From the NCBI GenBank assembly GCA_964016885.1, contig OZ024766.1, forward strand, positions 7,626,001-7,690,000: DNA of 64,000 nt, in the 5' to 3' direction. Source of the stretch: Eledone cirrhosa (taxonomy: Eukaryota). The notes beneath the pieces are model-generated. The model had not been told where the DNA came from, did not search any database, and was given only the letters and a program-made list of their open reading frames with translations. Below are positions 3,143 through 59,905 of the stretch, one piece after another (position 1 is the stretch's first letter; the number at the start of each line of letters is the position of its first letter). A program made the translations under genes and the position numbers.

Positions 3143-3195
3143 GTAAGTTTCTTAAATTAGCCCAACAGATAACAGCTTCCCTTATTCTTCTCCAG

Positions 3196-5605: not shown

Positions 5606-5737
5606 GGTACAGCAGCTAGTAGGAATTTTTTCAGGGGGATCTGAGGGATTGAATTGGGACCCTCTGGATGATTTGACATGGAATGACCCCTATATAAAAT
5701 TATGTTGGAAGATTTTAATTTAAATAGAACCCTTTAA

Positions 5738-6521: not shown

Positions 6522-6623
6522 TTAAAGTAGGAGGGTTTGTTTCATAGAACCAGAGCTGGGTTTTGGCTGGGCTGCTATGAAAAATGGTTAACACATCTTT
6601 ATTTGTGTGTTGCTTGTCGACAG

Positions 6624-7775: not shown

Positions 7776-7840
7776 TGTTTCAGCCAATAGGATAAAACAT
7801 TCGTTAGTTATTAAATGTTTGAAAAATTAAATACTCTTTG

Positions 7841-27058: not shown

Positions 27059-27082
27059 GTAAAATGAAAATAAAATTTTTTT

Positions 27083-29308: not shown

Positions 29309-29945
29309 TAGGGTGGGTAAAATTCCCAAGATCCATGGATGAGTTCTCTCCAGCGGTCTCTGTCCCTCATTATCGTTGCCATGTCCTGCGTCTCCAACAG
29401 ACCAGTGTCTGTCCTTAGGGCATCAACATACGTCAACCTCGGTCTTCCTCTTCCAGTGTGTCCATGTAGGGGCTCCCACAGGAGCACTGAGTGCAGTGTC
29501 AACTCTGGATGTCGGTGAGCATGTCCAGCTAACCTAGTGTGTCCATGTAGGGGCTCCCACAGGAGCACTGAGTGCAATGTCAACTCTGAATGTCGGTGAG
29601 CATGTCCAGCTAACCTAGTGTGTCCATGTAGGGGCTCCCACAGGAGCACTGAGTGCAGTGTCAACTCTGGATGTCGGTGAGCATGTCCAGCTAACCTAGT
29701 GTGTCCATGTAGGGGCTCCCACAGGAGCACTGAGTGCAATGTCAACTCTGAATGTCGGTGAGCATGTCCAGCTAACCTAGTGTGTCCATGTAGGGGCTCC
29801 CACAGGAGCACTGAGTGCAGTGTCAACTCTGAATGTCGGTGAGCATGTCCAGCTAACCTCAGTCTCCTCTGTGTTACTCTCAATTTAACAGCACTAGGGT
29901 TAAAGTCCCTAACTTCAATGTCAAGGAGCAATCTGGTTGTTATGA
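29309..29945 (-). mobile_element. RTE-like LINE 3' fragment with five 81-bp internal tandem copies
   Basis: RRLRLAGHAHRH..LLWEP..GRGRPRLTYVDAL..DRDRWR; the 27-codon unit is repeated in frame. Confidence 0.82.
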
Positions 29946-29972: not shown

Positions 29973-31115
29973 AAAATACAATAGTATATATAGAGTAATG
30001 TAAATGTTATGTGAGATATTATGTGAGGTAAAGCCTTTACTGTGACAATACAATAGTATATATAGAGTAATGTAAATGTTATGTGAGGTATTATGTGAGG
30101 TAAAGCCTTTACTATGAAAATACAATAGTATATATAGAGTAATGTAAATGTTATGTGAGATATTATGTGAGGTAAAGCCTTTACTGTGACAATACAATAG
30201 TATATATAGAGTAATGTAAATGTTATGTGAGGTATTATGTGAGGTAAAGCCTTTACTATGAAAATACAATAGTATATATAGAGTAATGTAAATGTTATGT
30301 GAGATATTAGTTGAGGTAAAGCCTTTACTGTGACAATACAATAGTATATATAGAGTAATGTAAATGTTATGTGAGATATTATGTGAGGTAAAGCCTTTAC
30401 TGTGACAATACAATAGTATATATAGAGTAATGTAAATGTTATGTGAGATATTATGTGAGGTAAAGCCTTTACTGTGAAAATACAATAGTATATATAGAGT
30501 AATGTAAATGTTATGTGAGATATTATGTGAGGTAAAGCCTTTACTGTGACAATACAATAGTATATATAGAGTAATGTAAATGTTATGTGAGATATTATGT
30601 GAGGTAAAGCCTTTACTGTGAAAATACAATAGTATATATAGAGTAATGTAAATGTTATGTGAGATATTATGTGAGGTAAAGCTTTTACTGTGAAAATACA
30701 ATAGTATATATAGAGTAATGTAAATGTTATGTGAGATATTATGTGAGGTAAAGCCTTTACTGTGACAATACAATAGTATATATAGAGTAATGTAAATGTT
30801 ATGTGAGATATTATGTGAGGTAAAGCCTTTACTGTGACAATACAATAGTATATATAGAGTAATGTAAATGTTATGTGAGATATTATGTGAGGTAAGGCCT
30901 TTACTGTGAAAATACAATAGTATATATAGAGTAATGTAAATGTTATGTGAGATATTATGTGAGGTAAAGCCTTTACTGTGACAATACAATAGTATATATA
31001 GAGTAATGTAAATGTTATGTGAGATATTATGTGAGGTAAAGCCTTTACTGTGAAAATACAATAGTATATATAGAGTAATGTAAATGATAAAGGACTAAAG
31101 CTTGCTAAAGGTTAA
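29973..31115. repeat. 72-bp MITE-internal minisatellite (about 15 copies) ending in a degenerate right TIR
   Basis: Same unit as 5874-6513; ends taaatgataaagg..tgctaaaggttaa. Confidence 0.88.
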
Positions 31116-35952: not shown

Positions 35953-37695
35953 CGGAACATAACTCAACAGTGGTTCTTATGATGGACAGTTTTTAGATAA
36001 ATATAAACACTTTAAAACAAACAGTTTTGTATCATAGAACCAGGGGTGTTTGGAACATAACTTAACAAAGGTTCTTACAAACAGTGTTGTATCATAGAAC
36101 CAGGGGTATTTGGAACATAACTTAACACAGGTTCTTACATAAAATTATGATGGAAGGTTTTTAGATAAATATAAACACTTTAAAACAAACAGTTTTGTAT
36201 CATAGAACCAGGGATGTTTGGAACATAGCTTAACAAAGGTGCTTACAAACAGTTTTCCATCATAGAACCAGAGGTATTTGGAACATAACTTAACAAAGGT
36301 TTTTACAAACAGTTTTGTATCATAGAAGCAGGGGTGTTTGGAACATAACTTAACAAAGGTTCCTACATAAAATTATGATGGAAGGTTTTTAGATAAATAT
36401 AAACACTTTAAAACAAACAGTTTTGTATCATAGAACCAGGGATGTTTGGAACATAGCTTAACAAAGGTGCTTACAAACAGTTTTCCATCATAGAACCAGA
36501 GGTATTTGGAACATAACTTAACAAAGGTTTTTACAAACAGTTTTGTATCATAGAAGCAGGGGTGTTTGGAACATAACTTAACAAAGGTTCCTACATAAAA
36601 TTATGATGGAAGGTTTTTAGATAAATATAAACACTTTAACACAAACAGTTTTGTATCATAGAACCAGGGGTGTTTGGAACATAACTTAACAAAGGTTCCT
36701 ACATAAAATTATGATGGAAGGTTTTTAGATAAATATAAACACTTTAACACAAACAGTTTTGTATCATAGAACCAGGGGTGTTTGGAACATAACTTAACAA
36801 AGGTTCCTACATAAAATTATGATGGAAGGTTTTTAGATAAATATAAACACTTTAACACAAACAGTTTTGTATCATAGAACCAGGGGTGTTTGGAACATAA
36901 CTTAACAAAGGTTCCTACATAAAATTATGATGGAAGGTTTTTAGATAAATATAAACACTTTAACACAAACAGTTTTGTATCATAGAACCAGGGGTGTTTG
37001 GAACATAACTTAACACAGGTTCTTACATAAAATTATGATGGAAGGTTTTTAGATAAATATAAACACTTTAAAACAAACAGTTTTGTATCATAGAACCAGG
37101 GGTGTTTGGAACATAACTTAACACAGGTTCTTACATAAAATTATGATGGAAGGTTTTTAGATAAATATAAACACTTTAAAACAAACAGTTTTGTATCATA
37201 GAACCAGGGATGTTTGGAACATAGCTTAACAAAGGTGCTTACAAACAGTTTTCCATCATAGAACCAGAGGTATTTGGAACATAACTTAACAAAGGTTTTT
37301 ACAAACAGTTTTGTATCATAGAAGCAGGGGTGTTTGGAACATAACTTAACAAAGGTTCCTACATAAAATTATGATGGAAGGTTTTTAGATGAATATAAAC
37401 ACTTTAAAACAAACAGTTTTGTATCATAGAACCAGGGGTGTTTGGAACATAACTTAACACAGGTTCTTACATAAAATTATGATGGAAGGTTTTTAGATAA
37501 ATATAAACACTTTAAAACACACAGTTTTGTATCATAGAACCAGGGGTGTTTGGAACATAACTTAACAAAGGTTCTTACATAAAATTATGATGGAAGGTTT
37601 TTAGATAAATATAAACACTTTAAAACAAACAGTTTTGTATCATAGAACCAGGGGTGTTTGGAACATAACTTAACACAGGTTCTTACATAAAATTA
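35953..37695. repeat. Minisatellite with mixed 108-bp and 60-bp units
   Basis: ttatgatggaagg recurs at 36601, 36709 and 36817. Homologous to single-copy sequence flanking the MITE at 5690-5737 and 6522-6555. Confidence 0.9.
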
Positions 37696-37745: not shown

Positions 37746-37921
37746 GAGGTTGCACATTTTCGAGGGTATGTGTTACCCATACGTAATGTCTCCCCCTAAT
37801 GGGGAAAATCAACTAATCTTTAAATTCCATCTGTGATAACATTTTACACGTTTTTATTGTATGTAAACTTCCCCCTTTGTATTTGTCCCCTTCTTTTGTG
37901 CCCCTGTGGCTAATAAAGAAA
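37746..37921 (+). mobile_element. Tx1-family 3' UTR fragment heading a 1.6-kb (TATC/TA/TC)n tract
   Basis: Ends gtggctaataaagaaa-cata-tctat. Confidence 0.8.
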
Positions 37922-37965
37922 CATATCTATCTATCTATCTATCTATCTATTTATTTATCTATCTA

Positions 37966-41449: not shown

Positions 41450-42242
41450 CATCATTCATCATCATTTTACGTCCGCTTTTCCCTGCTTGCAAGGGTGGGA
41501 CGGGTCTTATTCAGCACAGCATCTCTCCACTCGTCACGGTCCCTCGTCATCTCCACCGTGAGCTTCAATGATCTGAGGTCTGTTCTCACCACCTCCGCCC
41601 ATGTTTTTCGTGGTCTACCTCTACCACGTCTTCCTTCAACTGGCATTTCCTGGCACTTCTTCACCCATCGGTCATCCTCCATGCGCATCACATGTCCATA
41701 CCACCTCAGTCTCCTCTCCCTTACACTACATTCTATCCCTCTCAGACACAGTTTCTCTCTCAACACATCACATGTCCATACCACCTCAGTCTCCTCTCCC
41801 GTACACTACATTCTATCCCTCTCAGACACAGTTTCTCTCTCAACACATCACATGTCCATACCACCTCAGTCTCCTCTCCCGTACACTACATTCTATCCCT
41901 CTCAGACACAGTTTCTCTCTCAACACATCACATGTCCATACCACCTCAGTCTCCTCTCCCGTACACTACATTCTATCCCTCTCAGACACAGTTTCTCTCT
42001 CAACACATTTATGCTGGGTCGTTCACGCACATTTACACTGCACATCCAACGGAGCATGCTTGCCTCATTTCTCTCCAGCCGTCGCATATCCTCTGCGGTT
42101 GCTGCCCATGTCTCACTACCATGCAGCATCGCGCTCCTCACACAGGCATCATACAACCGGCCTTTCGTACGCAGGGAGAAACCCTTCTTCGTCAACAGAG
42201 GAAGCAGCTCCCTAAACTTCTTCCAACCCGTCCTTATTCTAG
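41450..42242 (-). mobile_element. RTE LINE 3' fragment with four 80-bp tandem copies
   Basis: KGRLYDACVRSAMLHGSETW..RRLRWYGHVMR..GRRGRGRPRKTW..DRDEWR, (GAT)n tail. Confidence 0.88.
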
Positions 42243-44355: not shown

Positions 44356-44483
44356 GTGAGTTTTCCGGTCAGAATCAACCATGAATTCTCTCACTTTTTT
44401 CTGTTAAAACTGGCCACTCGTTTTTATGTTAAGGTATTATTCTTAAAATAAATAATATCAAAGATATATAATATTATAGATTC

Positions 44484-44753
44484 GATATTATGTGAGGTAA
44501 AACTTTTACTGTGAAAATACAATAGTAAATATAGAGTAATGTAAATGTTATGTGAGATATTATGTGAGGTAAAGCCTTTACTGTGAAAATACAATAGTAA
44601 ATATAGAGTAATGTAAATGTTATGTGAGATATTATGTGAGGTAAAGCCATTACTGTGAAAATACAATAGTATATATAGAGTAATGTAAATGTTATGTGAG
44701 ATATTATGTGAGGTAAAGCCTTTACTGTGAAAATACAATAGCAAATATAGAGT
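44484..44753. repeat. 72-bp minisatellite, left segment
   Basis: About 3.7 units ending ..atagagt. Confidence 0.93.
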
Positions 44754-44990
44754 GGTTTCTTTATTTGCCACTAGGGCACAAAAGGTAGGGACAGATACAA
44801 GGGGGGAAGTTTACATATAATTAACGAGTACAAAAATATAACAATGAAATAACAACAACAAACGAAGTCCTCAATAGGGAGGGGGCATTAACATGGGTCG
44901 CACACACCCCGGAAAAAATGTGTAACCCTTCTCCTCAGGAGCACAAAGAGTAGGTGCTTCCCTCGTCTCCGCTTTTTCCTCTTCTTTCAC

Positions 44991-47900
44991 CTACAGGCTG
45001 ATATAGAGAGAAGACCCATTCACTCTGGCCATTCTCCCTACTTTCACCCACCTTTCATAAAACTTGCTGGGGTAGAGCACCTCTCTCTCCATTCTGATCC
45101 TTCTTTTAAAATGGTATTTGAAAAAGGGGACCAGTTGTTGGCCGGAGAGAAAGGTGTCTGACCTCAGCCCTTTCAGCCTCGTCCACCATACAACTTCTTT
45201 AGCCATGGCTACCACACAGAGAAAAACCGCCTCTCCTTCGTTTTTGAAAGGGGGAGGCGGTTTGATCGTGACAATGGACTCGGTGGTCAACCGGATTGGT
45301 CCCACCCTCGACAGTAGTCGTTCCACATAGCCCCACAGGTCAGCAATGCCTGGGCAGTGTACGAATGCGTGCGCAACGGTTTCGTCATCATGCACGCATC
45401 TCGGACAGATCTTATTCAAAGGATCTCTACCCAGGCTCCCATGCCTGTGGAGCTTGTCTCGAACGGGTAGAGCCCCTCGGTAGCACTGCCAAGCCAGGGA
45501 CTTTTGGAAGTTGTCCATCGGTCCAGGGCCAAACGTCCTACCGAACAGACTGGCCAGTTCATCTTCCTCCATGCCTAGAGCTTCTCCGAGAGCATCGTCG
45601 CACCTGCTGCGTACCAACCCTCTATAGAATGTCGAGGTGGAGTCTCCACTGATTGCCGGGTCCGCTTTCCAGAGGGCCGTGAGCGCCTGGGCACATTCAA
45701 TGTGCCAGTCGCCCACTTTTCTCGGTCTTTGCTTGACCCAGGATTGCAGCTCGGTGAGCGAGACGAGTCTGGGAAAGGCTCGCCTCACAAACGGGGCCCA
45801 CACCGGTTGACCGGTGAGGAATACCTGGAGGTGCCGTAGCCTTAATGCGTGTTTACGCATCTGTAGCCACGGCATCCCCAGCCCTCCTTTCGAAGGGTGT
45901 TGACAGCAGATGGATCTCCTCACCAAAGGGGTCCGCTTGTTCCAAAGAAATTGGAACAGCGCGCACTCCATTTTGGCGAGTCTTTTCACTGGGCAAGGCA
46001 CGACGGTCAAGCGGTAGTAGATGACGGATGCTATATAAGTATTCGCCACCTCCGCTCGACCTTTCAGGGATAGTTTGCACTGGGCCCACTTCTGGGTGAG
46101 TGCAAACACCCTGGCCGTTACCTCGTTCCAGTTTTTCTCCACCTGGAGGTCTGGTCCGAACCAGACCCCAAGCAGCTTCACCGGGCCCTCCGTCCAGCGT
46201 CCGACGACGTCGTTGGAGGGCATCGGTTTGCCTCTCCATGTTCCGAGTTGCAAACCGACGGACTTGTCCCGGTTCAGCTTGGCTCCTGTAAACCTTTCAT
46301 ATTCCTCCAGTAAGGTGCCGATCTCACCGATTTGCGAGGTTTTCGACACCATTACTGTCACGTCATCGGCGTAGGCCGACGCCGCTTTCTGCAATCCCGG
46401 TTCCAAAGGGATGCCCTGCAACCGCTCCAACTTCCGCAGTAGTGGCTCAAGAGCCAGCACATACAGTAGGGAGGAGAGAGGGCATCCCTGTCGGATGGAT
46501 CGCATGATTTGGAACGGCTCCGAGAGGTGGCCGTTCACCTTGACCCTTGAGCAGACGTTGCTGCTGTGCATCGCAGCAATCCAACCCCTGAAAACGGGTC
46601 CGAAGCCTGCCGCCGCGAGCACCGCATCCAGGTAACGATGGTCAACCCTATCGAAAGCTTTAGATTGATCCAAGTTGATCAGGGCCCCACCAAAGCCGGG
46701 TTCATTCCCTACCCTCTCTATGATGTATCGCATAAGGTGGAGATTGTCGTGAATGGACCTGGACGGGATTGCGCATGTCTGCGCTTCTCCCACCAGGTTT
46801 CCAACGACAAGCGCCAACCTCTTCGCTAACACCTTGGCCAAAATCTTTAACTCTGTATTTAGCAGAGTTATGGGCCTGAAGTTACTTATGTCATCCCCCT
46901 TGTTCTCATCCTTCCTCACCAGCGTAACTACGCCCTTGGTCACAGAACTTGGAATTCTCCCGTTCTGCTGCCAGTTGCAGTAGACCGCTTCGAGGATATC
47001 GGAGAACAAGTCCGGCATCGCTACATATAGCTCGTATGGTAGACCATCGAGACCCGGGGATTTGCGTTTGCCGCATTGGCTCAGCGCCGCCCCTATCTCA
47101 GCAGCTGAAATCGTCCTTTCGCAGGACTTCGCCTCCGCGTCCGAGAGGCGCGGCAGACCGTCGAGGTATGGATTGAAATCCATAGTCTCACCCGGCGCGC
47201 CGCCCCTCTCGAACAGTCGTGCAAAGTGCCGCTGAAAGGCCGCACACATCTGCCCAGGTTCAAGGATCACACGCCCATCCTGGTCCTTCAAAGACCGAAT
47301 CGTGGACTTGTTCCCACTTTTTGCCTCTGTCACTCGGGCCCAGCTTACAGCTTTGGCTCCCTCATTACCCAGAGCACGTATTTTACTCCTGACAACGCAG
47401 CCTTCATGCTTCACCTCAAAGAACTGGTCTAAGGCCATTCTTGATGCCAGCACGCCGGCTACATTGCCACTCCTAATCGCCTCTTCTACTCTATCTACTA
47501 ATTCCCTTTCCGTCTTGTTCCTATCCCTTGCTAATTCCTGACTAAAACCTATCGATTCTATTCTAATTGCTCTCTTAAGAGAGCTCCACCACCTGTTGTT
47601 GACAATTGCCCCTGTCAAATTCTGCTTAACTAACGTGCTAATCCGTTTACTGTAAGCTTTGCTTCTCGGTAAGGACAAGTTCAGCTTCCAGTAACCGGGT
47701 CCCTGTCTATGGGTTCTATCAAGGTTGGCTATGCAGGTCACTAACTTGTGATCCGAATAGTCAACCATGAACATTTTTGGACAGCTAAATGTGTCCCTAT
47801 CGTTCTCTCTAACTAGGACCCTATCTAGGTACGACCTAGATGTTCCACTGCGATTGGTCCACGTCCATAGTGGTACAGTCGGAAAATCTAGTCGATATCT

Positions 47901-48428
47901 ATCGGCCAGGTCAAATCGGCCGATTAACCTTTTGAGGCTTTTACACCCCCCTCTATTGGCACATGCCCCTACATAGTCCCAACGTACATCCAGGATACCA
48001 TTCCAGTCCCCCACTAAAAGCAAGGAGCGGGACGTTCCCAGAAAAGTTTCCAGACGTTGGAAGTATTCCGGCCGCGCTGCCCAAAAAGGGGCGTACACAG
48101 CTATTAGTCTAAGGGCTCCACTTTCACTACTGCCGACGTCTAAAACCACCAGTCGACCCTCCGGGTCCAGGTGCACCTTCTGTATGGCGAGGCCCAGGTG
48201 TTTTCGCAGCAGAACGACAACTCCACCCCCACCCCCCGGTTGACAGAGAGATGCGAAGATCTCAAAGTCGTCGAAGAGGGGCGCCAGTTGGTGCTCGCTG
48301 CTGATCCTGGACTCGCAAATAGCCATTACATCCATTCTATGTGACCTGAGATCGTTTAAAAGTTTGCCTTGTTTCCAAGACAGTCCCAGGCCACGTACAT
48401 TCAGAAACCCAACTCTTATATCAGCCAT
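44991..48428 (-). CDS. Tx1 ORF2: APE endonuclease, reverse transcriptase, C-terminal CCHC (1145 aa)
   Basis: LNVRGL, VYAP, GDWN, LDR, SDH, GPGYWKLN, PGLDG, RPITLLN, DQSKAFD, QGCPLS, YADD and CPRC..ETVAHAFVHC are all intact. Confidence 0.96.
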   Translation of the reverse strand: MADIRVGFLNVRGLGLSWKQGKLLNDLRSHRMDVMAICESRISSEHQLAPLFDDFEIFASLCQPGGGGGVVVLLRKHLGLAIQKVHLDPEGRLVVLDVGSSESGALRLIAVYAPFWAARPEYFQRLETFLGTSRSLLLVGDWNGILDVRWDYVGACANRGGCKSLKRLIGRFDLADRYRLDFPTVPLWTWTNRSGTSRSYLDRVLVRENDRDTFSCPKMFMVDYSDHKLVTCIANLDRTHRQGPGYWKLNLSLPRSKAYSKRISTLVKQNLTGAIVNNRWWSSLKRAIRIESIGFSQELARDRNKTERELVDRVEEAIRSGNVAGVLASRMALDQFFEVKHEGCVVRSKIRALGNEGAKAVSWARVTEAKSGNKSTIRSLKDQDGRVILEPGQMCAAFQRHFARLFERGGAPGETMDFNPYLDGLPRLSDAEAKSCERTISAAEIGAALSQCGKRKSPGLDGLPYELYVAMPDLFSDILEAVYCNWQQNGRIPSSVTKGVVTLVRKDENKGDDISNFRPITLLNTELKILAKVLAKRLALVVGNLVGEAQTCAIPSRSIHDNLHLMRYIIERVGNEPGFGGALINLDQSKAFDRVDHRYLDAVLAAAGFGPVFRGWIAAMHSSNVCSRVKVNGHLSEPFQIMRSIRQGCPLSSLLYVLALEPLLRKLERLQGIPLEPGLQKAASAYADDVTVMVSKTSQIGEIGTLLEEYERFTGAKLNRDKSVGLQLGTWRGKPMPSNDVVGRWTEGPVKLLGVWFGPDLQVEKNWNEVTARVFALTQKWAQCKLSLKGRAEVANTYIASVIYYRLTVVPCPVKRLAKMECALFQFLWNKRTPLVRRSICCQHPSKGGLGMPWLQMRKHALRLRHLQVFLTGQPVWAPFVRRAFPRLVSLTELQSWVKQRPRKVGDWHIECAQALTALWKADPAISGDSTSTFYRGLVRSRCDDALGEALGMEEDELASLFGRTFGPGPMDNFQKSLAWQCYRGALPVRDKLHRHGSLGRDPLNKICPRCVHDDETVAHAFVHCPGIADLWGYVERLLSRVGPIRLTTESIVTIKPPPPFKNEGEAVFLCVVAMAKEVVWWTRLKGLRSDTFLSGQQLVPFFKYHFKRRIRMEREVLYPSKFYERWVKVGRMARVNGSSLYISL

Positions 48429-48449
48429 GTTGGTTAAAAGAGGAAGGAC

Positions 48450-50192
48450 CTACCTGTTCGGCTCCTGAGGAGCAGGTTGCACAATATCCATGGGCGTATT
48501 GGAGGGGTTGTTTGGTGGGGTGTTGTTCTGTGGTGGAGTGGGGGTGTTTGGTGAGGTGTGGGTGGGGAAACGTTTCAAGAGGACGCGGTTATAGGGTCGA
48601 GTACATGTTTTCCCCACGTCCTCAGGAAAGTTCTCTCTTAGTTTTGCATAGGTGTCCATTGGGAGTCTTATCATTTTTAAATGCGGTTTGTTGGCCGCGC
48701 TTGCAAAGAATTGCCCTTCAGTTTCCACCAAAGGGTCTTTGTGTATTGTTTTTACTAGTTCTTTGTTATTTGTGTTAATGTATGTATACTGTTTTATTTG
48801 TGTTGTGTTTGTTTGTTGTTCTTGTGTGTGCTTACGTTTTGTTGTATGTGTTATGTTTTGGGGTGGGGCGGATTTTGTTTGTTCTGTTTGTTTTGTTTTT
48901 GTTGGTGGTTGTGTGTTTGTTTCGTTTATGTTCGAGTGGTGCTTTCTTTTTTTCCTTTTTACAGGTTGGAAGGGTTCCCCCTCTTCGTCACTAGGTGCCG
49001 TTTCCGCTGGGTCCTCGTCCGTGCTGTCGGGTAGTGGTGTATTTTGGGGTTTTGTTGTATTTGTGTGTGTTTTGGGAGTTGTTTTGGGTGGGGCCGTGTC
49101 TTGTGTTATTTTTCCCTGTTGTTTTTGTTGTTGTTGTGGTGGTGGTGGTGGAGGTGGTGGTGGTGGTGGTGGTGGCGGTGGTGGTGTGTGGGGTGTAGGC
49201 AAAAGAGCCTTTTTTTTTGTCAATTGAGGACAAGCAGCCCTTAGATGACCCCTGCTTGAACAGTAGTAACATATGGGCCTCCTACCCTCGGCTGAAATAT
49301 ATATAAATGTTTCTCCATCGAGGGACACCCTCTGTGGTATTCTAGCGATTCGTTCTGGTCTCATTTGGACCAGAACCTCCACGCTCAAACCGCCGAAAAC
49401 GTCTGTGGTGACTTCTCCTACTGAGAGGATTCCGTCCTCGTCTTCTAAAAATCCTGTTAGTACCCAGGAAATGCATGCATTTGGCCGGATTCCGGAGACC
49501 CTTATCTTCTGCGTTCTTTTCCCTAAATATGTGGGGAAAAATGTATATATCTTGGAAACAATTGGTGCCACAGAGTATTTCCTGGCCGTCAATTGATCCT
49601 TCATTAGGACCGTTATATTCCCATAGAGTGGCCCTTTTTGTATGAACGATATATCACTCCACACATTTTTTAGGACCAGCTCAATCTCTTTTTGGGATAA
49701 TTGAGTTGGTTTCCTTGTTATGTTGGAAATTGTTCTGAAAGATATCGTTCTTAGCGTCGTGTCTCTTTTGATTTCTTGTGGGGAGGTGATTGTGAAGTCT
49801 CCTCCTTCTTTGAAAGTTACATACTGTTTCGCTTCCTTCATCTTTTCTCTCAGAGTTGTAATGTCCAGTTGCTTGCAGGTTTGTGTTTTCCGGACCGCCT
49901 GTGCAAAGGAGGTACCAGTAGTGGGTTCACTTTGTTTGGTGTTATCGTTATTTTTTCCTTGGTTGGTGTTGTGACTATTGCTGTTATTGTCGTTGATGTT
50001 TTTGTCTGCGTTTATGTGACTTTCTGGGTTTTCACCCATTTCTACAAATTTTTCTTTTAATTCCGTGTTCCATGTTTCTTTTGCAGAAGTGAGGAGGGAA
50101 GACTTAGAGCCTTGTGCTTCTAGCTTCTCTGTATCACCTTTCTTAGGGGGCGTGGCTTTCACGTTAGGATGAGATGTGAAAATTCCGTCCAT
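48450..50192 (-). CDS. Tx1 ORF1 (580 aa from the first ATG), gag-like zinc knuckle
   Basis: CYYCSSRGHLRAAC (CX2CX4HX4C), Pro/Thr-rich tail, KRKKRK basic patch. Confidence 0.9.
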   Translation of the reverse strand: MDGIFTSHPNVKATPPKKGDTEKLEAQGSKSSLLTSAKETWNTELKEKFVEMGENPESHINADKNINDNNSNSHNTNQGKNNDNTKQSEPTTGTSFAQAVRKTQTCKQLDITTLREKMKEAKQYVTFKEGGDFTITSPQEIKRDTTLRTISFRTISNITRKPTQLSQKEIELVLKNVWSDISFIQKGPLYGNITVLMKDQLTARKYSVAPIVSKIYTFFPTYLGKRTQKIRVSGIRPNACISWVLTGFLEDEDGILSVGEVTTDVFGGLSVEVLVQMRPERIARIPQRVSLDGETFIYISAEGRRPICYYCSSRGHLRAACPQLTKKKALLPTPHTPPPPPPPPPPPPPPPPQQQQKQQGKITQDTAPPKTTPKTHTNTTKPQNTPLPDSTDEDPAETAPSDEEGEPFQPVKRKKRKHHSNINETNTQPPTKTKQTEQTKSAPPQNITHTTKRKHTQEQQTNTTQIKQYTYINTNNKELVKTIHKDPLVETEGQFFASAANKPHLKMIRLPMDTYAKLRENFPEDVGKTCTRPYNRVLLKRFPTHTSPNTPTPPQNNTPPNNPSNTPMDIVQPAPQEPNR

Positions 50193-50403
50193 TTCTATTA
50201 GTTTGCCGTAATAAATTTTTAACTGGAAAATTCGCCCCAAAAAGGGGCGAAAATAAATAAACTCAAAGTTTGACGACCAAGGCAAGGGGTTAACGTATAT
50301 TACAGTATAAAAAAATTAATCAAAACTCACTTTTTGAGTAAGTAAATCCGACTCGGTAGCCGAGCTTGTTCACACACGTCAACACACGTCTCTCGTATAC
50401 GAG

Positions 50404-53360
50404 ATGTTATGTGAGATATTATGTGAGGTAAAGCCTTTACTGTGAAAATACAATAGTATATATAGAGTAATGTAAATGTTATGTGAGATATTATGTGAGG
50501 TAAAGCCTTTACTGTGAAAATACAATAGTATATATAGAGTAATGTAAATATTATGTGAGGTATTATGTGAGGTAAAGCCTTTACTGTGAAAATACAATAG
50601 TATATATAGAGTAATGTAAATGTTATGTGAGATATTATGTGAGGTAAAGCCTTTACTGTGAAAATACAATAGTAAATATAGAGTAATGTAAATGTTATGT
50701 GAGATATTATGTGAGGTAAAGCCTTTACTGTGAAAATACAATAGTATATATAGAGTAATGTAAATGTTATGTGAGATATTATGTGAGGTAAAGCCTTTAC
50801 TGTGAAAATACAATAGTATATATAGAGTAATGTAAATGTTATGTGAGATATTATGTGAGGTAAAGCCTTTACTGTCACAATACAATAGTATATATAGAGT
50901 AATGTAAATGTTATGTGAGATATTATGTGAGGTAAAGCCTTTACTGTGAAAATACAATAGTATATATAGAGTAATGTAAATGTTATGTGAGATATTATGT
51001 GAGGTAAAGCCTTTACTGTGAAAATACAATAGTTTATATAGAGTAATGTAAATGTTATGTGAGATATTATGTGAGGTAAAGCCTTTACTGTGAAAATACA
51101 ATAGTATATATAGAGTAATGTAAATGTTATGTGAGGTATTATGTGAGGTAAAGCCTTTACTGTGAAAATACAATAGTTTATATAGAGTAATGTAAATGTT
51201 ATGTGAGATATTATGTGAGGTAAAGCCTTTACTGTGAAAATACAATAGTAAATATAGAGTAATGTAAATGTTATGTGAGATATTATGTGAGGTAAAGCCT
51301 TTACTGTGAAAATACAATAGTATATATAGAGTAATGTAAATGTTATGTGAGGTAAAGCCTTTACTGTGAAAATACAATAGTATATATAGAGTTATGTAAA
51401 TGTTATGTGAGATATTATGTGAGGTAAAGCCTTTACTGTGAAAATACAATAGTATATATAGAGTAATGTAAATGTTATGTGAGATATTATGTGAGGTAAA
51501 GCCTTTACTGTGAAAATACAATAGTATATATAGAGTAATGTAAATGTTATGTGAGATATTATGTGAGGTAAAGCCTTTACTGTGAAAATACAATAGTATA
51601 TATAGAGTAATGTAAATGTTATGTGAGGTATTATGTGAGGTAAAGCCTTTACTGTGAAAATACAATAGTATATATAGAGTAATGTAAATGTTATGTGAGG
51701 TAAAGCCTTTACTGTGAAAATACAATAGTATATATAGAGTTATGTAAATGTTATGTGAGATATTATGTGAGGTAAAGCCTTTACTGTGAAAATACAATAG
51801 TATATATAGAGTAATGTAAATGTTATGTGAGATATTATGTGAGGTAAAGCCTTTACTGTGAAAATACAATAGTATATATAGAGTAATGTAAATGTTATGT
51901 GAGATATTATGTGAGGTAAAGCCTTTACTGTGAAAATACAATAGTATATATAGAGTAATGTAAATGTTATGTGAGGTATTATGTGAGGTAAAGCCTTTAC
52001 TGTGAAAATACAATAGTATATATAGAGTAATGTAAATGTTATGTGAGGTAAAGCCTTTACTGTGAAAATACAATAGTATATATAGAGTTATGTAAATGTT
52101 ATGTGAGATATTATGTGAGGTAAAGCCTTTACTGTGAAAATACAATAGTATATATAGAGTAATGTAAATGTTATGTGAGATATTATGTGAGGTAAAGCCT
52201 TTACTGTGAAAATACAATAGTATATATAGAGTAATGTAAATGTTATGTGAGATATTATGTGAGGTAAAGCCTTTACTGTGAAAATACAATAGTATATATA
52301 GAGTAATGTAAATGTTATGTGAGGTATTATGTGAGGTAAAGCCTTTACTGTGAAAATACAATAGTATATATAGAGTAATGTAAATGTTATGTGAGATATT
52401 ATGTGAGGTAAAGCCTTTACTGTGAAAATACAATAGTTTATATAGAGTAATGTAAATGTTATGTGAGATATTATGTGAGGTAAAGCCTTTACTGTGAAAA
52501 TACAATAGTATATATAGAGTAATGTAAATGTTATGTGAGGTATTATGTGAGGTAAAGCCTTTACTGTGAAAATACAATAGTTTATATAGAGTAATGTAAA
52601 TGTTATGTGAGATATTATGTGAGGTAAAGCCTTTACTGTGAAAATACAATAGTAAATATAGAGTAATGTAAATGTTATGTGAGATATTATGTGAGGTAAA
52701 GCCTTTACTGTGAAAATACAATAGTATATATAGAGTAATGTAAATGTTATGTGAGGTAAAGCCTTTACTGTGAAAATACAATAGTATATATAGAGTTATG
52801 TAAATGTTATGTGAGATATTATGTGAGGTAAAGCCTTTACTGTGAAAATACAATAGTATATATAGAGTAATGTAAATGTTATGTGAGATATTATGTGAGG
52901 TAAAGCCTTTACTGTGAAAATACAATAGTATATATAGAGTAATGTAAATGTTATGTGAGATATTATGTGAGGTAAAGCCTTTACTGTGAAAATACAATAG
53001 TATATATAGAGTAATGTAAATGTTATGTGAGATATTATGTGAGGTAAAGCCTTTACTGTGAAAATACAATAGTATATATAGAGTTATGTAAATGTTATGT
53101 GAGGTAAAGCCTTTACTGTGAAAATACAATAGTATATATAGAGTTATGTAAATGTTATGTGAGATATTATGTGAGGTAAAGCCTTTACTGTGAAAATACA
53201 ATAGTATATATAGAGTAATGTAAATGTTATGTGAGATATTATGTGAGGTAAAGCCTTTACTGTGAAAATACAATAGTATATATAGAGTAATGTAAATGTT
53301 ATGTGAGATATTATGTGAGGTAAAGCCTTTACTGTGAAAATACAATAGTATATATAGAGT
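50404..53360. repeat. 72-bp minisatellite, middle segment (about 42 units, some 60-bp variants)
   Basis: Unit tgtgaggtaaagcctttactgtgaaaatacaatagtatatatagagtaatgtaaatgttatgtgagatatta. Confidence 0.96.
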
Positions 53361-53597
53361 GGTTTCTTTATTTGCCACTAGGGCACAAAAGGTAGGGACA
53401 GATACAAGGGGGGAAGTTTACATATAATTAACGAGTACAAAAATATAACAATGAAATAACAACAACAAACGAAGTCCTCAATAGGGAGGGGGCATTAACA
53501 TGGGTCGCACACACCCCGGAAAAAATGTGTAACCCTTCTCCTCAGGAGCACAAAGAGTAGGTGCTTCCCTCGTCTCCGCTTTTTCCTCTTCTTTCAC

Positions 53598-56500
53598 CTA
53601 CAGGCTGATATAGAGAGAAGACCCATTCACTCTGGCCATTCTCCCTACTTTCACCCACCTTTCATAAAACTTGCTGGGGTAGAGCACCTCTCTCTCCATT
53701 CTGATCCTTCTTTTAAAATGGTATTTGAAAAAGGGGACCAGTTGTTGGCCGGAGAGAAAGGTGTCTGACCTCAGCCCTTTCAGCCTCGTCCACCATACAA
53801 CTTCTTTAGCCATGGCTACCACACAGAGAAAAACCGCCTCTCCTTCGTTTTTGAAAGGGGGGGGGGGCGGTTTGATTGTGACAATGGACTCGGTGGTCAA
53901 CCGGATTGGTCCCACCCTCGACAGTAGTCGTTCCACATAGCCCCACAGGTCAGCAATGCCTGGGCAGTGTACGAATGCGTGCGCAACGGTTTCGTCATTA
54001 TGCACGCATCTCGGACAGATCTTATTCAAAGGATCTCTACCCAGGCTCCCATGCCTGTGGAGCTTGTCTCGAACGGGTAGAGCCCCTCGGTAGCACTGCC
54101 AAGCCAGGGACTTTTGGAAGTTGTCCATCGGTCCAGGGCCAAACGTCCTACCGAACAGACTGGCCAGTTCATCTTCCTCCATGCCTAGAGCTTCTCCGAG
54201 AGCATCGTCGCACCTGCTGCGTACCAACCCTCTATAGAATGTCGAGGTGGAGTCTCCACTGATTGCCGGGTCCGCTTTCCAGAGGGCCGTGAGCGCCTGG
54301 GCACATTCAATGTGCCAGTCGCCCACTTTTCTCGGTCTTTGCTTGACCCAGGATTGCAGCTCGGTGAGCGAGACGAGTCTGGGAAAGGCTCGCCTCACAA
54401 ACGGGGCCCACACCGGTTGACCGGTGAGGAATACCTGGAGGTGCCGTAGCCTTAATGCGTGTTTACGCATCTGTAGCCACGGCATCCCCAGCCCTCCTTT
54501 CGAAGGGTGTTGACAGCAGATGGATCTCCTCACCAAAGGGGTCCGCTTGTTCCAAAGAAATTGGAACAGCGCGCACTCCATTTTGGCGAGTCTTTTCACT
54601 GGGCAAGGCACGACGGTCAAGCGGTAGTAGATGACGGATGCTATATAAGTATTCGCCACCTCCGCTCGACCTTTCAGGGATAGTTTGCACTGGGCCCACT
54701 TCTGGGTGAGTGCAAACACCCTGGCCGTTACCTCGTTCCAGTTTTTCTCCACCTGGAGGTCTGGTCCGAACCAGACCCCAAGCAGCTTCACCGGGCCCTC
54801 CGTCCAGCGTCCGACGACGTCGTTGGAGGGCATCGGTTTGCCTCTCCATGTTCCGAGTTGCAAACCGACGGACTTGTCCCGGTTCAGCTTGGCTCCTGTA
54901 AACCTTTCATATTCCTCCAGTAAGGTGCCGATCTCACCGATTTGCGAGGTTTTCGACACCATTACTGTCACGTCATCGGCGTAGGCCGACGCCGCTTTCT
55001 GCAATCCCGGTTCCAAAGGGATGCCCTGCAACCGCTCCAACTTCCGCAGTAGTGGCTCAAGAGCCAGCACATACAGTAGGGAGGAGAGAGGGCATCCCTG
55101 TCGGATGGATCGCATGATTTGGAACGGCTCCGAGAGGTGGCCGTTCACCTTGACCCTTGAGCAGACGTTGCTGCTGTGCATCGCAGCAATCCAACCCCTG
55201 AAAACGGGTCCGAAGCCTGCCGCCGCGAGCACCGCATCCAGGTAACGATGGTCAACCCTATCGAAAGCTTTAGATTGATCCAAGTTGATCAGGGCCCCAC
55301 CAAAGCCGGGTTCATTCCCTACCCTCTCTATGATGTATCGCATAAGGTGGAGATTGTCGTGAATGGACCTGGACGGGATTGCGCATGTCTGCGCTTCTCC
55401 CACCAGGTTTCCAACGACAAGCGCCAACCTCTTCGCTAACACCTTGGCCAAAATCTTTAACTCTGTATTTAGCAGAGTTATGGGCCTGAAGTTACTTATG
55501 TCATCCCCCTTGTTCTCATCCTTCCTCACCAGCGTAACTACGCCCTTGGTCACAGAACTGGGAATTCTCCCGTTCTGCTGCCAGTTGCAGTAGACCGCTT
55601 CGAGGATATCGGAGAACAAGTCCGGCATCGCTACATATAGCTCGTATGGTAGACCATCGAGACCCGGGGATTTGCGTTTGCCGCATTGGCTCAGCGCCGC
55701 CCCTATCTCAGCAGCTGAAATCGTCCTTTCGCAGGACTTCGCCTCCGCGTCCGAGAGGCGCGGCAGACCGTCGAGGTATGGATTGAAATCCATAGTCTCA
55801 CCCGGCGCGCCGCCCCTCTCGAACAGTCGTGCAAAGTGCCGCTGAAAGGCCGCACACATCTGCCCAGGTTCAAGGATCACACGCCCATCCTGGTCCTTCA
55901 AAGACCGAATCGTGGACTTGTTCCCACTTTTTGCCTCTGTCACTCGGGCCCAGCTTACAGCTTTGGCTCCCTCATTACCCAGAGCACGTATTTTACTCCT
56001 GACAACGCAGCCTTCATGCTTCACCTCAAAGAACTGGTCTAAGGCCATTCTTGATGCCAGCACGCCGGCTACATTGCCACTCCTAATCGCCTCTTCTACT
56101 CTATCTACTAATTCCCTTTCCGTCTTGTTCCTATCCCTTGCTAATTCCTGACTAAAACCTATCGATTCTATTCTAATTGCTCTCTTAAGAGAGCTCCACC
56201 ACCTGTTGTTGACAATTGCCCCTGTCAAATTCTGCTTAACTAACGTGCTAATCCGTTTACTGTAAGCTTTGCTTCTCGGTAAGGACAAGTTCAGCTTCCA
56301 GTAACCGGGTCCCTGTCTATGGGTTCTATCAAGGTTGGTTATGCAGGTCACTAACTTGTGATCCGAATAGTCAACCATGAACATTTTTGGACAGCTAAAT
56401 GTGTCCCTATCGTTCTCTCTAACTAGGACCCTATCTAGGTACGACCTAGATGTTCCACTGCGATTGGTCCACGTCCATAGTGGTACAGTCGGAAAATCTA

Positions 56501-57038
56501 GTCGATATCTATCGGCCAGGTCAAATCGGCCGATTAACCTTTTGAGGCTTTTACACCCCCCTCTATTGGCACATGCCCCTACATAGTCCCAACGTGCATC
56601 CAGGATACCATTCCAGTCCCCCACTAAAAGCAAGGAGCGGGACGTTCCCAGAAAAGTTTCCAGACGTTGGAAGTATTCCGGCCGCGCTGCCCAAAAAGGG
56701 GCGTACACAGCTATTAGTCTAAGGGCTCCACTTTCACTACTGCCGACGTCTAAAACCACCAGTCGACCCTCCGGGTCCAGGTGCACCTTCTGTATGGCGA
56801 GGCCCAGGTGTTTTCGCAGCAGAACGACAACTCCACCCCCACCCCCCGGTTGACAGAGAGATGCGAAGATCTCAAAGTCGTCGGAGAGGGGCGCCAGTTG
56901 GTGCTCGCTGCTGATCCTGGACTCGCAAATAGCCATTACATCCATTCTATGTGACCTGAGATCGTTTAAAAGTTTGCCTTGTTTCCAAGACAGTCCCAGG
57001 CCACGTACATTCAGAAACCCAACTCTTATATCAGCCAT
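53598..57038 (-). CDS. Tx1 ORF2 (1146 aa)
   Basis: All EN, RT and CCHC motifs intact. Confidence 0.96.
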   Translation of the reverse strand: MADIRVGFLNVRGLGLSWKQGKLLNDLRSHRMDVMAICESRISSEHQLAPLSDDFEIFASLCQPGGGGGVVVLLRKHLGLAIQKVHLDPEGRLVVLDVGSSESGALRLIAVYAPFWAARPEYFQRLETFLGTSRSLLLVGDWNGILDARWDYVGACANRGGCKSLKRLIGRFDLADRYRLDFPTVPLWTWTNRSGTSRSYLDRVLVRENDRDTFSCPKMFMVDYSDHKLVTCITNLDRTHRQGPGYWKLNLSLPRSKAYSKRISTLVKQNLTGAIVNNRWWSSLKRAIRIESIGFSQELARDRNKTERELVDRVEEAIRSGNVAGVLASRMALDQFFEVKHEGCVVRSKIRALGNEGAKAVSWARVTEAKSGNKSTIRSLKDQDGRVILEPGQMCAAFQRHFARLFERGGAPGETMDFNPYLDGLPRLSDAEAKSCERTISAAEIGAALSQCGKRKSPGLDGLPYELYVAMPDLFSDILEAVYCNWQQNGRIPSSVTKGVVTLVRKDENKGDDISNFRPITLLNTELKILAKVLAKRLALVVGNLVGEAQTCAIPSRSIHDNLHLMRYIIERVGNEPGFGGALINLDQSKAFDRVDHRYLDAVLAAAGFGPVFRGWIAAMHSSNVCSRVKVNGHLSEPFQIMRSIRQGCPLSSLLYVLALEPLLRKLERLQGIPLEPGLQKAASAYADDVTVMVSKTSQIGEIGTLLEEYERFTGAKLNRDKSVGLQLGTWRGKPMPSNDVVGRWTEGPVKLLGVWFGPDLQVEKNWNEVTARVFALTQKWAQCKLSLKGRAEVANTYIASVIYYRLTVVPCPVKRLAKMECALFQFLWNKRTPLVRRSICCQHPSKGGLGMPWLQMRKHALRLRHLQVFLTGQPVWAPFVRRAFPRLVSLTELQSWVKQRPRKVGDWHIECAQALTALWKADPAISGDSTSTFYRGLVRSRCDDALGEALGMEEDELASLFGRTFGPGPMDNFQKSLAWQCYRGALPVRDKLHRHGSLGRDPLNKICPRCVHNDETVAHAFVHCPGIADLWGYVERLLSRVGPIRLTTESIVTIKPPPPPFKNEGEAVFLCVVAMAKEVVWWTRLKGLRSDTFLSGQQLVPFFKYHFKRRIRMEREVLYPSKFYERWVKVGRMARVNGSSLYISL

Positions 57039-57059
57039 GTTGGTTAAAAGAGGAAGGAC

Positions 57060-58787
57060 CTACCTGTTCGGCTCCTGAGGAGCAGGTTGCACAATATCCA
57101 TGGGCGTATTGGAGGGGTTGTTTGGTGGGGTGTTGTTCTGTGGTGGAGTGGGGGTGTTTGGTGAGGTGTGGGTGGGGAAACGTTTCAAGAGGACGCGGTT
57201 ATAGGGTCGAGTACATGTTTTCCCCACGTCCTCAGGAAAGTTCTCTCTTAGTTTTGCATAGGTGTCCATTGGGAGTCTTATCATTTTTAAATGCGGTTTG
57301 TTGGCCGCGCTTGCAAAGAATTGCCCTTCAGTTTCCACCAAAGGGTCTTTGTGTATTGTTTTTACTAGTTCTTTGTTATTTGTGTTAATGTATGTATACT
57401 GTTTTATTTGTGTTGTGTTTGTTTGTTGTTCTTGTGTGTGCTTACGTTTTGTTGTATGTGTTATGTTTTGGGGTGGGGCGGATTTTGTTTGTTCTGTTTG
57501 TTTTGTTTTTGTTGGTGGTTGTGTGTTTGTTTCGTTTATGTTCGAGTGGTGCTTTCTTTTTTTCCTTTTTACAGGTTGGAAGGGTTCCCCCTCTTCGTCA
57601 CTAGGTGCCGTTTCCGCTGGGTCCTCGTCCGTGCTGTCGGGTAGTGGTGTATTTTGGGGTTTTGTTGTATTTGTGTGTGTTTTGGGAGTTGTTTTGGGTG
57701 GGGCCGTGTCTTGTGTTATTTTTCCCTGTTGTTTTTGTTGTTGTTGTGGTGGTGGTGGTGGAGGTGGTGGTGGTGGTGGTGGTGGCGGTGGTGGTGTGTG
57801 GGGTGTAGGCAAAAGAGCCTTTTTTTTTGTCAATTGAGGACAAGCAGCCCTTAGATGACCCCTGCTTGAACAGTAGTAACATATGGGCCTCCTACCCTCG
57901 GCTGAAATATATATAAATGTTTCTCCATCGAGGGACACCCTCTGTGGTATTCTAGCGATTCGTTCTGGTCTCATTTGGACCAGAACCTCCACGCTCAAAC
58001 CGCCGAAAACGTCTGTGGTGACTTCTCCTACTGAGAGGATTCCGTCCTCGTCTTCTAAAAATCCTGTTAGTACCCAGGAAATGCATGCATTTGGCCGGAT
58101 TCCGGAGACCCTTATCTTCTGCGTTCTTTTCCCTAAATATGTGGGGAAAAATGTATATATCTTGGAAACAATTGGTGCCACAGAGTATTTCCTGGCTGTC
58201 AATTGATCCTTCATTAGGACCGTTATATTCCCATAGAGTGGCCCTTTTTGTATGAACGATATATCACTCCACACATTTTTTAGGACCAGCTCAATCTCTT
58301 TTTGGGATAATTGAGTTGGTTTCCTTGTTATGTTGGAAATTGTTCTGAAAGATATCGTTCTTAGCGTCGTGTCTCTTTTGATTTCTTGTGGGGAGGTGAT
58401 TGTGAAGTCTCCTCCTTCTTTGAAAGTTACATACTGTTTCGCTTCCTTCATCTTTTCTCTCAGAGTTGTAATGTCCAGTTGCTTGCAGGTTTGTGTTTTC
58501 CGGACCGCCTGTGCAAAGGAGGTACCAGTAGTGGGTTCACTTTGTTTGGTGTTATCGTTATTTTTTCCTTGATTGCTGTTATTGTCGTTGATGTTTTTGT
58601 CTGCGTTTATGTGACTTTCTGGGTTTTCACCCATTTCTACAAATTTTTCTTTTAATTCCGTGTTCCATGTTTCTTTTGCAGAAGTGAGGAGGGAAGACTT
58701 AGAGCCTTGTGCTTCTAGCTTCTCTGTATCACCTTTCTTAGGGGGCGTGGCTTTCACGTTAGGATGAGATGTGAAAATTCCGTCCAT
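57060..58787 (-). CDS. Tx1 ORF1 (575 aa from the first ATG)
   Basis: As copy 1, with an in-frame 15-bp deletion. Confidence 0.9.
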   Translation of the reverse strand: MDGIFTSHPNVKATPPKKGDTEKLEAQGSKSSLLTSAKETWNTELKEKFVEMGENPESHINADKNINDNNSNQGKNNDNTKQSEPTTGTSFAQAVRKTQTCKQLDITTLREKMKEAKQYVTFKEGGDFTITSPQEIKRDTTLRTISFRTISNITRKPTQLSQKEIELVLKNVWSDISFIQKGPLYGNITVLMKDQLTARKYSVAPIVSKIYTFFPTYLGKRTQKIRVSGIRPNACISWVLTGFLEDEDGILSVGEVTTDVFGGLSVEVLVQMRPERIARIPQRVSLDGETFIYISAEGRRPICYYCSSRGHLRAACPQLTKKKALLPTPHTPPPPPPPPPPPPPPPPQQQQKQQGKITQDTAPPKTTPKTHTNTTKPQNTPLPDSTDEDPAETAPSDEEGEPFQPVKRKKRKHHSNINETNTQPPTKTKQTEQTKSAPPQNITHTTKRKHTQEQQTNTTQIKQYTYINTNNKELVKTIHKDPLVETEGQFFASAANKPHLKMIRLPMDTYAKLRENFPEDVGKTCTRPYNRVLLKRFPTHTSPNTPTPPQNNTPPNNPSNTPMDIVQPAPQEPNR

Positions 58788-58999
58788 TTCTATTAGTTTG
58801 CCGTAATAAATTTTTAACTGGAAAATTCGCCCCAAAAAGGGGCGAAAATAAATAAACTCAAAGTTTGACGACCAAGGCAAGGGGTTAACGTATATTACAG
58901 TATAAAAAAAATTAATCAAAACTCACTTTTTGAGTAAGTAAATCCGACTCGGTAGCCGAGCTTGTTCACACACGTCAACACACGTCTCTCGTATACGAG

Positions 59000-59866
59000 A
59001 TGTTATGTGAGATATTATGTGAGGTAAAGCCTTTACTGTGAAAATACAATAGTATATATAGAGTAATGTAAATGTTATGTGAGATATTATGTGAGGTAAA
59101 GCCTTTACTGTGAAAATACAATAGTATATATAGAGTAATGTAAATGTTATGTGAGATATTATGTGAGGTAAAGCCTTTACTGTGAAAATACAATAGTATA
59201 TATAGAGTAATGTAAATGTTATGTGAGATATTATGTGAGGTAAAGCCTTTACTGTGAAAATACAATAGTATATATAGAGTAATGTAAATGTTATGTGAGA
59301 TATTATGTGAGGTAAAGCCTTTACTGTGAAAATACAATAGTATATATAGAGTAATGTAAATGTTATGTGAGATATTATGTGAGGTAAAGCCTTTACTGTG
59401 AAAATACAATAGTATATATAGAGTAATGTAAATGTTATGTGAGATATTATGTGAGGTAAAGCCTGTACTGTGACAATACAATAGTATATATAGAGTAATG
59501 TAGATGTTATGTGAGATATTATGTGAGGTAAAGCCTTTACTGTGAAAATACAATAGTATATATAGAGTAATGTAAATGTTATGTGAGATATTATGTGAGG
59601 TAAAGCCTTTACTGTGAAAATACAATAGTATATATAGAGTAATGTAAATGCTATGTGAGATATTATGTGAGGTAAAGCCTTTACTGTAAAAATACAATAG
59701 TATATATAGAGTAATGTAAATGTTATGTGAGATATTATGTGAGGTAAAGCCTTTACTGTAAAAATACAATAGTATATATAGAGTAATGTAAATGTGATGT
59801 GAGGTATTATGTGAGGTAAAGCCTTTACTGTGACAATACAATAGTATATATAGAGTAATGTAAATG
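59000..59866. repeat. 72-bp minisatellite, right segment (about 12 units) running into the MITE right TIR
   Basis: Seen directly. Confidence 0.95.
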
Positions 59867-59905
59867 CTAAAGGGTTAACAGATCTTTCTTAAAATTATTT
59901 TACAG

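Follow-up and report, generated by a model that had tools for sequence, protein, structure and literature searches.

Two young L1/Tx1-group retrotransposons at one base of a MITE-borne minisatellite in Eledone cirrhosa: a site in register with the microsatellite targets of sister elements

What brings two nearly identical retrotransposons to the same base of a tandem repeat? The question is raised by a 64,000-nucleotide stretch of Eledone cirrhosa DNA (assembly GCA_964016885.1, contig OZ024766.1, positions 7,626,001 to 7,690,000, forward strand; hereafter the window). In it, two long interspersed nuclear elements (LINEs), called A and B here, interrupt a 72-bp minisatellite that belongs to a miniature inverted-repeat transposable element (MITE). 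The positions of all features are collected in Table 1. We put the probability that the A/B family prefers the 72-mer site genome-wide, in an endonuclease-directed manner, at roughly 0.58. The feature is real, and A and B are likely a new example of a known transposon-in-transposon strategy, with a visible link to a microsatellite target.

Coordinates and open reading frames (ORFs) agree with an initial annotation of this DNA, which had described two full-length, intact LINEs in the same orientation. ORF2 encodes an apurinic/apyrimidinic-type (APE) endonuclease, a reverse transcriptase (RT), and a zf-RVT domain. The catalytic residues are intact in both copies. In copy A, the full endonuclease catalytic set is present (N10, E39, Y112, D141, N143, D202, D226, and H227), as are the RT motif YADD at residues 686 to 689 and a CCHC motif at C-terminal residues 1008 to 1025. 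ORF1 of A contains a single CCHC zinc knuckle, CX2CX4HX4C, at residues 307 to 323 (zf-CCHC, E = 0.007, under the Pfam cutoff). Its neighbors in the Atlas also have zf-CCHC, and a gag-like knuckle in ORF1 is typical of the Tx1 clade but not exclusive to it; an RRM-like region in the same protein is a lead only. Across 5.6 kb, 8 substitutions and 3 indels distinguish A from B (0.14% divergence). The indels in coding sequence, of 3 and 15 bp, are both in frame, leaving the ORFs open in both copies, and the third, of 1 bp, lies in the 5′ untranslated region (UTR). At a rate of 0.0036 per million years (PMC13282606), A and B split about 0.2 million years ago. The 5′ end of each LINE opens with a perfect 12-bp palindrome (58988-58999 and 50392-50403). 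Four Rfam ribozyme matches at this end were every one far under the gathering score, and the folds of the LINE ends are ordinary (z of −0.9 to −1.5, and +1.0).

Both LINEs interrupt the 72-bp unit at the same base, as had been proposed. Each junction reads ATAGAGT, element, ATGTTATG, and seven bases of the intact unit, AATGTAA, are absent at the insertion in 2/2 copies. Such a 7-bp target loss is indistinguishable from a 65-bp duplication, the array being 72-periodic. Between the LINEs, the five 60-bp deletion units and the repeated 348-bp block at 51288-53100 are a trace of recent array expansion.

Is there anything special about this base? Evidence comes from sister copies flanked by (TATC)n elsewhere in the window, which the initial annotation had not mentioned. 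There are five sister fragments, 73 to 83% identical to B where length allowed measuring, and four of them keep the 3′ end. All four of these ends lie in (TATC)n-type microsatellite and both A/B-type ends in the 72-mer; the 5′-truncated sister copies have a common 3′ junction in (TATC)n. At 16519-18250, four sister fragments stand head to tail with (TATC)n between them, one microsatellite having been used repeatedly. All six 3′ ends in the window have one register in common, AAAGAAA[C/T], 3 nucleotides, and then TCT[A/G]T (TCTAT in five, TCTGT in one). A seventh 3′-end-like match, at 25561, was discarded as chance. When the 144 positions and strands of the 72-mer were scored against (GATA)n in this register, the used site matched at 8/10 bases and the next seven sites at 6/10; ATAGA occurs once per unit, at the used site. 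Thus, relative to the element 3′ end, the 72-mer site is in register with the sisters’ (TATC)n flanks. The insertion site is nonrandom, as first suggested, being the best (GATA)n mimic of the 144 positions, and the length of the mimic matches the ~10 bp recognized by the Tx1L and TRAS1 endonucleases (PMC1919474). Because the 3′-end register is common and the used site is the best mimic, a relative of the endonuclease of the GATA-targeting sisters likely directed the insertion, even if there was just one event. To judge from the same sequences, the A/B family probably descends from GATA-microsatellite targeters.

The LINEs had been assigned to the Tx1 clade, and part of that assignment stands. 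The best PDB match of ORF2 is human L1 ORF2p (E = 1e-53), with R2 at 3e-23. By their two ORFs and their APE, RT, and C-terminal CCHC domains, A and B are classed in the L1/Tx1 group of APE-type non-LTR retrotransposons (those lacking long terminal repeats). RT identity is 35 to 38% to fish proteins labelled “transposon TX1” and 24 to 26% to plant L1, and among named relatives a protein of Argonauta hians comes closest, its RT region being 68% identical. ORF2 is 29% identical over 919 amino acids to Tetraodon BAC82605, which we take to be a deposit of the Kibi/Koshi series, its name being unconfirmed; an accession search for BAC82605/6/9 gave no name, and the clusters of the nearest relatives yielded no element names either. 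For strict clade membership the three trees, all built without Tx1L, Keno, Dewa, and human L1, disagree. FastTree (75 rows) put A/B with the fish “TX1”-labelled proteins at a support of 0.88, a full IQ-TREE run (38 rows) did so at 93/59 with another group between, and a fast IQ-TREE run placed A/B elsewhere. Membership in the Tx1 clade is therefore probable at the level of sequence comparison, the trees differing at depth. Four protein clusters (P0002, P0010, P0027, and P0170) have 352 to 732 members on long contigs and are 41 to 45% identical (RT region, 53 to 54%); from these cluster sizes, the A/B lineage is recently expanded in other animals too.

How many such copies exist? Among the public sequencing runs listed, 15/19 contain part of the stretch and five contain at least half of its words, with no RNA run listed among those that do; four were compared in detail, on the basis of 24 of 96,804 pieces, 24 of 3,344 loose ends, and 15 of 481 joints listed. 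Summed or contig depth does not equal copy number, as the tool itself warns. Depths in run X1 are 1959 to 2481 on six contigs from the 5′ part, whereas two divergent singleton contigs stand at 17 and 19. In run X17 (RAD), an ORF1 fragment bounded by SphI and MluCI sites has 36,954 reads, versus 71 to 143 in nine single-start stacks. On a loose reading of these depths, one organism has between roughly one hundred and a few hundred copies of near-full length, which bears out the young, multicopy family that had been anticipated. Within the final 50 bases of the element (53361-53410), X1 summed depth also climbs ~40-fold, from 2,487 at 53429 to 104,161 at 53408; the 3′ tip is common to a far larger set of relatives. 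In run X5, which has another organism label, single contigs (53339-53676 and 58441-59029; depth, 12 and 10) span both junctions at identical bases, with 22 and 30 flank bases, below the tool’s 31-base bridging rule; five X5 contigs diverge from B by 0.63%. The 72-mer junction is in this sense seen beyond the present assembly, in part as predicted, though on short flanks and with orthology possible. Under Kojima’s criterion for a target-specific family (more than 20% of flanks in one sequence type), the 72-mer flanks 2/2 window copies and both X5 contigs, copies that are possibly one event. Run X8 contains a ~95% relative and the 72-mer repeat, and no junction piece is shown among the X8 pieces listed. 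In JGI metagenomes the exact 3′-end pattern had 0 matches, and a protein scan gave 71 loci, all distant; DNA searches there gave no match to the 72-mer or the arm and one weak 65-bp match to the LINE. In IMG/VR, 0/81 candidates were confirmed.

Next to be considered is the target itself. The complete empty MITE begins with TTAA-CCCTTTAGCATTTA, and its terminal inverted repeat (TIR) of 14 bp starts with CCCT. The right TIR ends all three 72-mer loci of the window in the same phase, and 1636 reads of X17 link left-arm sequence to the start of the array. The 72-mer is thus subterminal sequence of a TTAA/CCCT MITE that has been amplified in tandem. Kolobok ends start with a purine, and a Kolobok origin was ruled out by the CCCT start. 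The hallmarks of piggyBac are a TTAA target duplication and a CC[C/T]T terminal motif (PMC2872659 and PMC10813416); judged by the ends of the 5734-6525 copy, which has both and contains no ORF, the MITE is of piggyBac/TTAA type. The LINE-bearing copy retains the right TIR only: a search of the window at up to 4 mismatches finds left TIRs solely at 5734 and 21000. The description of the array as the subterminal part of a TTAA MITE accordingly holds for the complete copy and for the perfect right TIR at 59861-59878, but the host copy at 44365 is without its left end. The same split applies to the idea that the MITE spreads the target, since three arrays end in a TIR but the LINE-bearing copy has no left one. 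For the third array, no left arm was found. No transposase was found among the scanned or read window ORFs of at least 150 amino acids. The arms of two MITE copies are 20% apart, yet the 72-mers of five array segments are 0.2 to 2.3% off one consensus, a homogeneity that holds between loci. At 21000-25153, a 61-bp unit of unrelated sequence, in 67.6 copies, comes after an exact left TIR (TTAA plus 14 bp), and no right TIR was found at up to 4 mismatches; different minisatellites may be seeded by this MITE family. A partial right-TIR-like end lies near 29893, after an 81-bp array.

In the mechanism that we favor, the 72-mer site is predicted to be nicked by the ORF2p endonuclease, which probably came down from relatives that target (GATA)n. 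Given the junctions and the established course of target-primed reverse transcription, the nick would fall two bases 3′ of ATAGA on the plus strand, and the resulting 3′ end would prime cDNA synthesis. A second nick 7 bases off would cost 7 bp of target, and the full-length cDNA would then be joined; target truncation is known for non-LTR elements (PMC4494074). The family would now prefer the 72-mer site genome-wide, and a single young source lineage would have inserted twice, as A and B, into a long array that was by then immobile. The missing left TIR and the 20%-diverged arm, versus LINEs 0.14% apart, argue for such immobility. In a multicopy intronic repeat, insertions may be cheap for the host.

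Several observations weigh against a genome-wide preference. The register test was designed with the junctions already known, and its anchor lies in the element, not in the target. The flanks of the many X1 and X17 copies are not among the pieces listed, and the X5 depth of 10 to 12 corresponds to about one or two copies, so that those contigs may be the orthologue of this locus. A stack of 117 X17 reads with one start joins the 3′ end of this family, or of one at least 90% related, to an element fragment at 54120, the letters between both parts not having been read. In addition, the endonuclease hairpin loop, which is implicated in targeting, has 9 residues, as in human L1; it has 11 in Tx1L and TRAS1 (PMC1950540), 11 in the fish protein P0405, and 11 to 13 in most 40%-identical relatives. 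The 9-residue loop could, by sequence comparison, mark relaxed or changed specificity. Because only 8 substitutions and 3 indels separate them, A and B are not automatically two events. They are about fourfold closer to each other than to the X5 or X1 majority sequence (0.63 to 0.65%), as local duplication would give, and they have in common at least seven listed differences from the X1/X5 majority contigs. The family might then still target (GATA)n, or ATAGA in a relaxed manner, and a single near-cognate insertion into the 72-mer might have been duplicated by unequal crossover, possibly between two alleles. The repeated block duplications in the middle array, the GATA-mimic nature of the site, and the possible descent of the X5 contigs from the same locus all suit this alternative, which we judge less likely but a serious rival. 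The flank unit of A carries two changes in the 12 bp next to the junction, and its three upstream units carry five more; none of these occurs beside B. Simple unequal crossover would copy the 3′ flank of A, and the absence of these variants beside B therefore argues against it. Two point changes in 45 bp have a chance of 0.002 at the A-B rate and of 0.075 at 1%. Conversion could account for one of these changes, a variant common in the array; the flank argument thus makes duplication less likely without removing it. Also speaking against it, the family is merely 73 to 83% identical to the (TATC)n-flanked sisters, A/B-type copies are absent from the window’s 720 bp of perfect (TATC)/(GATA) runs, and 4/8 A-B substitutions are synonymous (P ~0.13, weak). 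At 57909, 15,992/36,771 reads of X17 have the other allele; the window’s allele is probably common among X17 copies, which is also compatible with a shared source lineage.

A directed insertion into the 72-mer could instead have occurred once and spread at the DNA level, through MITE transposition or through the exchange that keeps the 72-mers alike. Kojima posed the same rival for SINEU-3 (PMC4494074). It would account for depth that is nearly flat along the element in X1 (2487 in the 3′ UTR versus 1959 to 2481 in the 5′ part) and in X5, a pattern that also weighs against repeated retrotransposition, as does the lack, among the 15 of 481 joints listed, of any 5′-truncated copy joined to the 72-mer, the window’s sister copies all being truncated. 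Identical 5′ ends, the identical 7-bp loss, and 72-mers far more alike than the arms would likewise be expected. Still, we regard such spread as distinctly improbable, given that the LINE-bearing MITE copy has no left TIR, that the ORFs are open with every coding indel in frame, and that 7/13 coding differences examined are synonymous (P ~0.03 under an assumed 26%, in rows selected by the tool). Least credible of all is an assembly artefact in which two alleles of a single insertion were strung together by way of the 72-bp arrays: 0.14% is compatible with alleles and long, near-perfect arrays lie on both sides of each copy, but the ordered variant pattern of the middle array is found in neither outer array.

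The array and its LINEs lie within a predicted intron, of which the LINE/MITE composite occupies 15,514/15,550 bp. The right TIR ends 27 bp from the splice acceptor. Because only 36 bp of the predicted intron would remain without the composite, the left TIR and adjoining intron DNA were probably deleted. Both LINEs are antisense to the gene, which is likely vitellogenin/apolipophorin-like because a Vit_open_b-sht exon lies at 26564-27067 on the same strand; the exon at 59906 has no Pfam or PDB match of its own. Elsewhere in the window, an RTE-like LINE ORF of 961 amino acids (11948-14833, plus strand) with endonuclease and RT served as an outgroup; its RT catalytic motif looks altered, and it is probably inactive.

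Table 1. Positions of the features described in the window
Feature	Position	Strand	Description
LINE copy A	44754-50403	minus	full length, 5650 bp, without poly(A) tail
ORF2 of A	44991-48428	minus	1145 aa, open
ORF1 of A	48450-50192	minus	580 aa, open
LINE copy B	53361-58999	minus	full length, 5639 bp
ORF2 of B	53598-57038	minus	1146 aa, open
ORF1 of B	57060-58787	minus	575 aa, open
72-bp array, 3′ flank of LINE A	44484-44753	plus	3.8 units; two changes in last unit within 12 bp of junction
72-bp array between LINEs	50404-53360	plus	~41 units; five 60-bp variants; repeated 348-bp higher-order block
72-bp array right of LINE B	59000-59866	plus	12 units, continuing into right TIR
Left arm of LINE-bearing MITE	44365-44483	plus	degenerate; 88 matches, 22 mismatches (110 aligned bases) to arm at 5753-5873
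Right TIR of LINE-bearing copy	59861-59878	plus	perfect, 14 bp + TTAA
Complete empty MITE	5734-6525	plus	TTAA, left TIR, 120-bp arm, 8.9 72-mer units, right TIR (2 mismatches), TTAA
Third 72-mer array, empty	29975-31098	plus	15.4 units (array 29975-31086); degenerate right TIR from 31081
Sister 3′ stub	16519-16560	plus	~45 bp, in (TATC/TGTC)n
Sister copy, 5′-truncated	16737-17359	plus	79% identical to B; (TATC)n at both ends
Sister copy, 5′-truncated	17391-17541	plus	(TATC)n at both ends
Sister fragment	17596-18250	plus	83% identity to B; 5′ end in (TATC)n; lacks 3′ end
Sister copy, 5′-truncated	37748-37922	plus	(TATC)n at both ends
Predicted phase-0 GT-AG intron	44356-59905	plus	15,550 bp; flanking exons joined in frame (KDKQM/GVDFAM)
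Minisatellite	1-379		46-bp unit
Minisatellite	3195-3991		49-bp unit
Minisatellite	7056-7776		84-bp unit
Minisatellite	27207-28071		51-bp unit
Minisatellite	29455-29859		81-bp unit
Minisatellite	36076-37695		108-bp unit
Minisatellite	41686-42008		80-bp unit

How does this arrangement compare with known systems? In Xenopus laevis, the Tx1L site reportedly lies in the internal tandem repeats of Tx1D, and Tx1L reportedly makes a target duplication. Like Tx1L in the piggyBac element Tx1D (PMC4494074 and PMC1950540), A and B are L1/Tx1-group APE-RT LINEs that occupy a fixed position within a nonautonomous piggyBac-type transposon. They differ from Tx1L in their mollusc host, in a 72-bp unit that adjoins the right TIR, in the apparent 7-bp target loss, and in the 9-residue endonuclease loop versus 11; specific nicking was shown for Tx1L, whereas here it is predicted from sequence. 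The preference of crocodilian Tx1 LINEs for positions within DNA transposons is a further likeness (Tx1-Mar in Mariner-N4_AMi and Tx1-9_AMi in Harbinger; PMC4494074), and among their SINEU partners target duplication and truncation both occur (PMC4494074). The phrase “invertebrate parallel” of Tx1L in the initial annotation is therefore fair, although the strategy already extends beyond Xenopus. In contrast to A/B-type copies, which are intact and ~0.1 to 0.7% apart, the crocodilian families are old (85 to 87% to consensus) and their targets are not tandem arrays. The sister copies in (TATC)n resemble Kibi and Koshi, which target the microsatellites (TC)n/(TTC)n (PMC3812793 and PMC4494074; also PMC6719617), and the crocodilian (TTCC)n/(TTTC)n Tx1 families. 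Unlike all of these, A/B uses a minisatellite mimic, and the accessible text of those papers does not name (GATA)n as a target. The MITE shares its TTAA duplication and CC[C/T]T motif with the coral CMITE and with Xenopus MITE-borne repeats (PMC2872659 and PMC10813416), and there are reports of tandem arrays built from an internal segment of a piggyBac MITE (cited in PMC2872659). For those repeats, LINE targeting is not mentioned in the accessible text; here, no matching transposase was found among the scanned or read ORFs. A curated repeat library of Octopus vulgaris holds 13 recently active L1-Tx1 families with 421 insertions, without target analysis in the accessible text (PMC13282606), and the A/B family may already be in it. 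The accessible parts of PMC10294476 and PMC2684134 contain nothing on targets. In the literature searched, which lay outside Repbase and most subscription journals, we found no cephalopod or mollusc LINE that targets a MITE repeat or (GATA)n.

Site-specific LINEs switch targets in evolution, and the steps are rarely visible, old and new targets sharing no recognizable sequence. A broader scenario, which we offer tentatively and would sooner doubt than assert, is that an early target switch has been caught here: an octopod lineage inserting into (GATA)n would have given rise to a young, active family on a GATA mimic in a MITE minisatellite, with a shortened endonuclease loop and with old and new targets in one genome. 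The MITE would multiply the target, and LINE traffic may help to keep the 72-mers alike. If local duplication is the true explanation, then the locus records an ordinary near-cognate insertion duplicated in an array. If instead the A/B family does prefer the 72-mer site, then a mollusc would join the frogs and crocodilians as a host of LINEs sheltering in transposons, and the candidate site-specific elements would gain an intact one. With microsatellite-targeting sisters and a young, intact family on a near-cognate minisatellite, all in one register, a change in APE specificity becomes testable.

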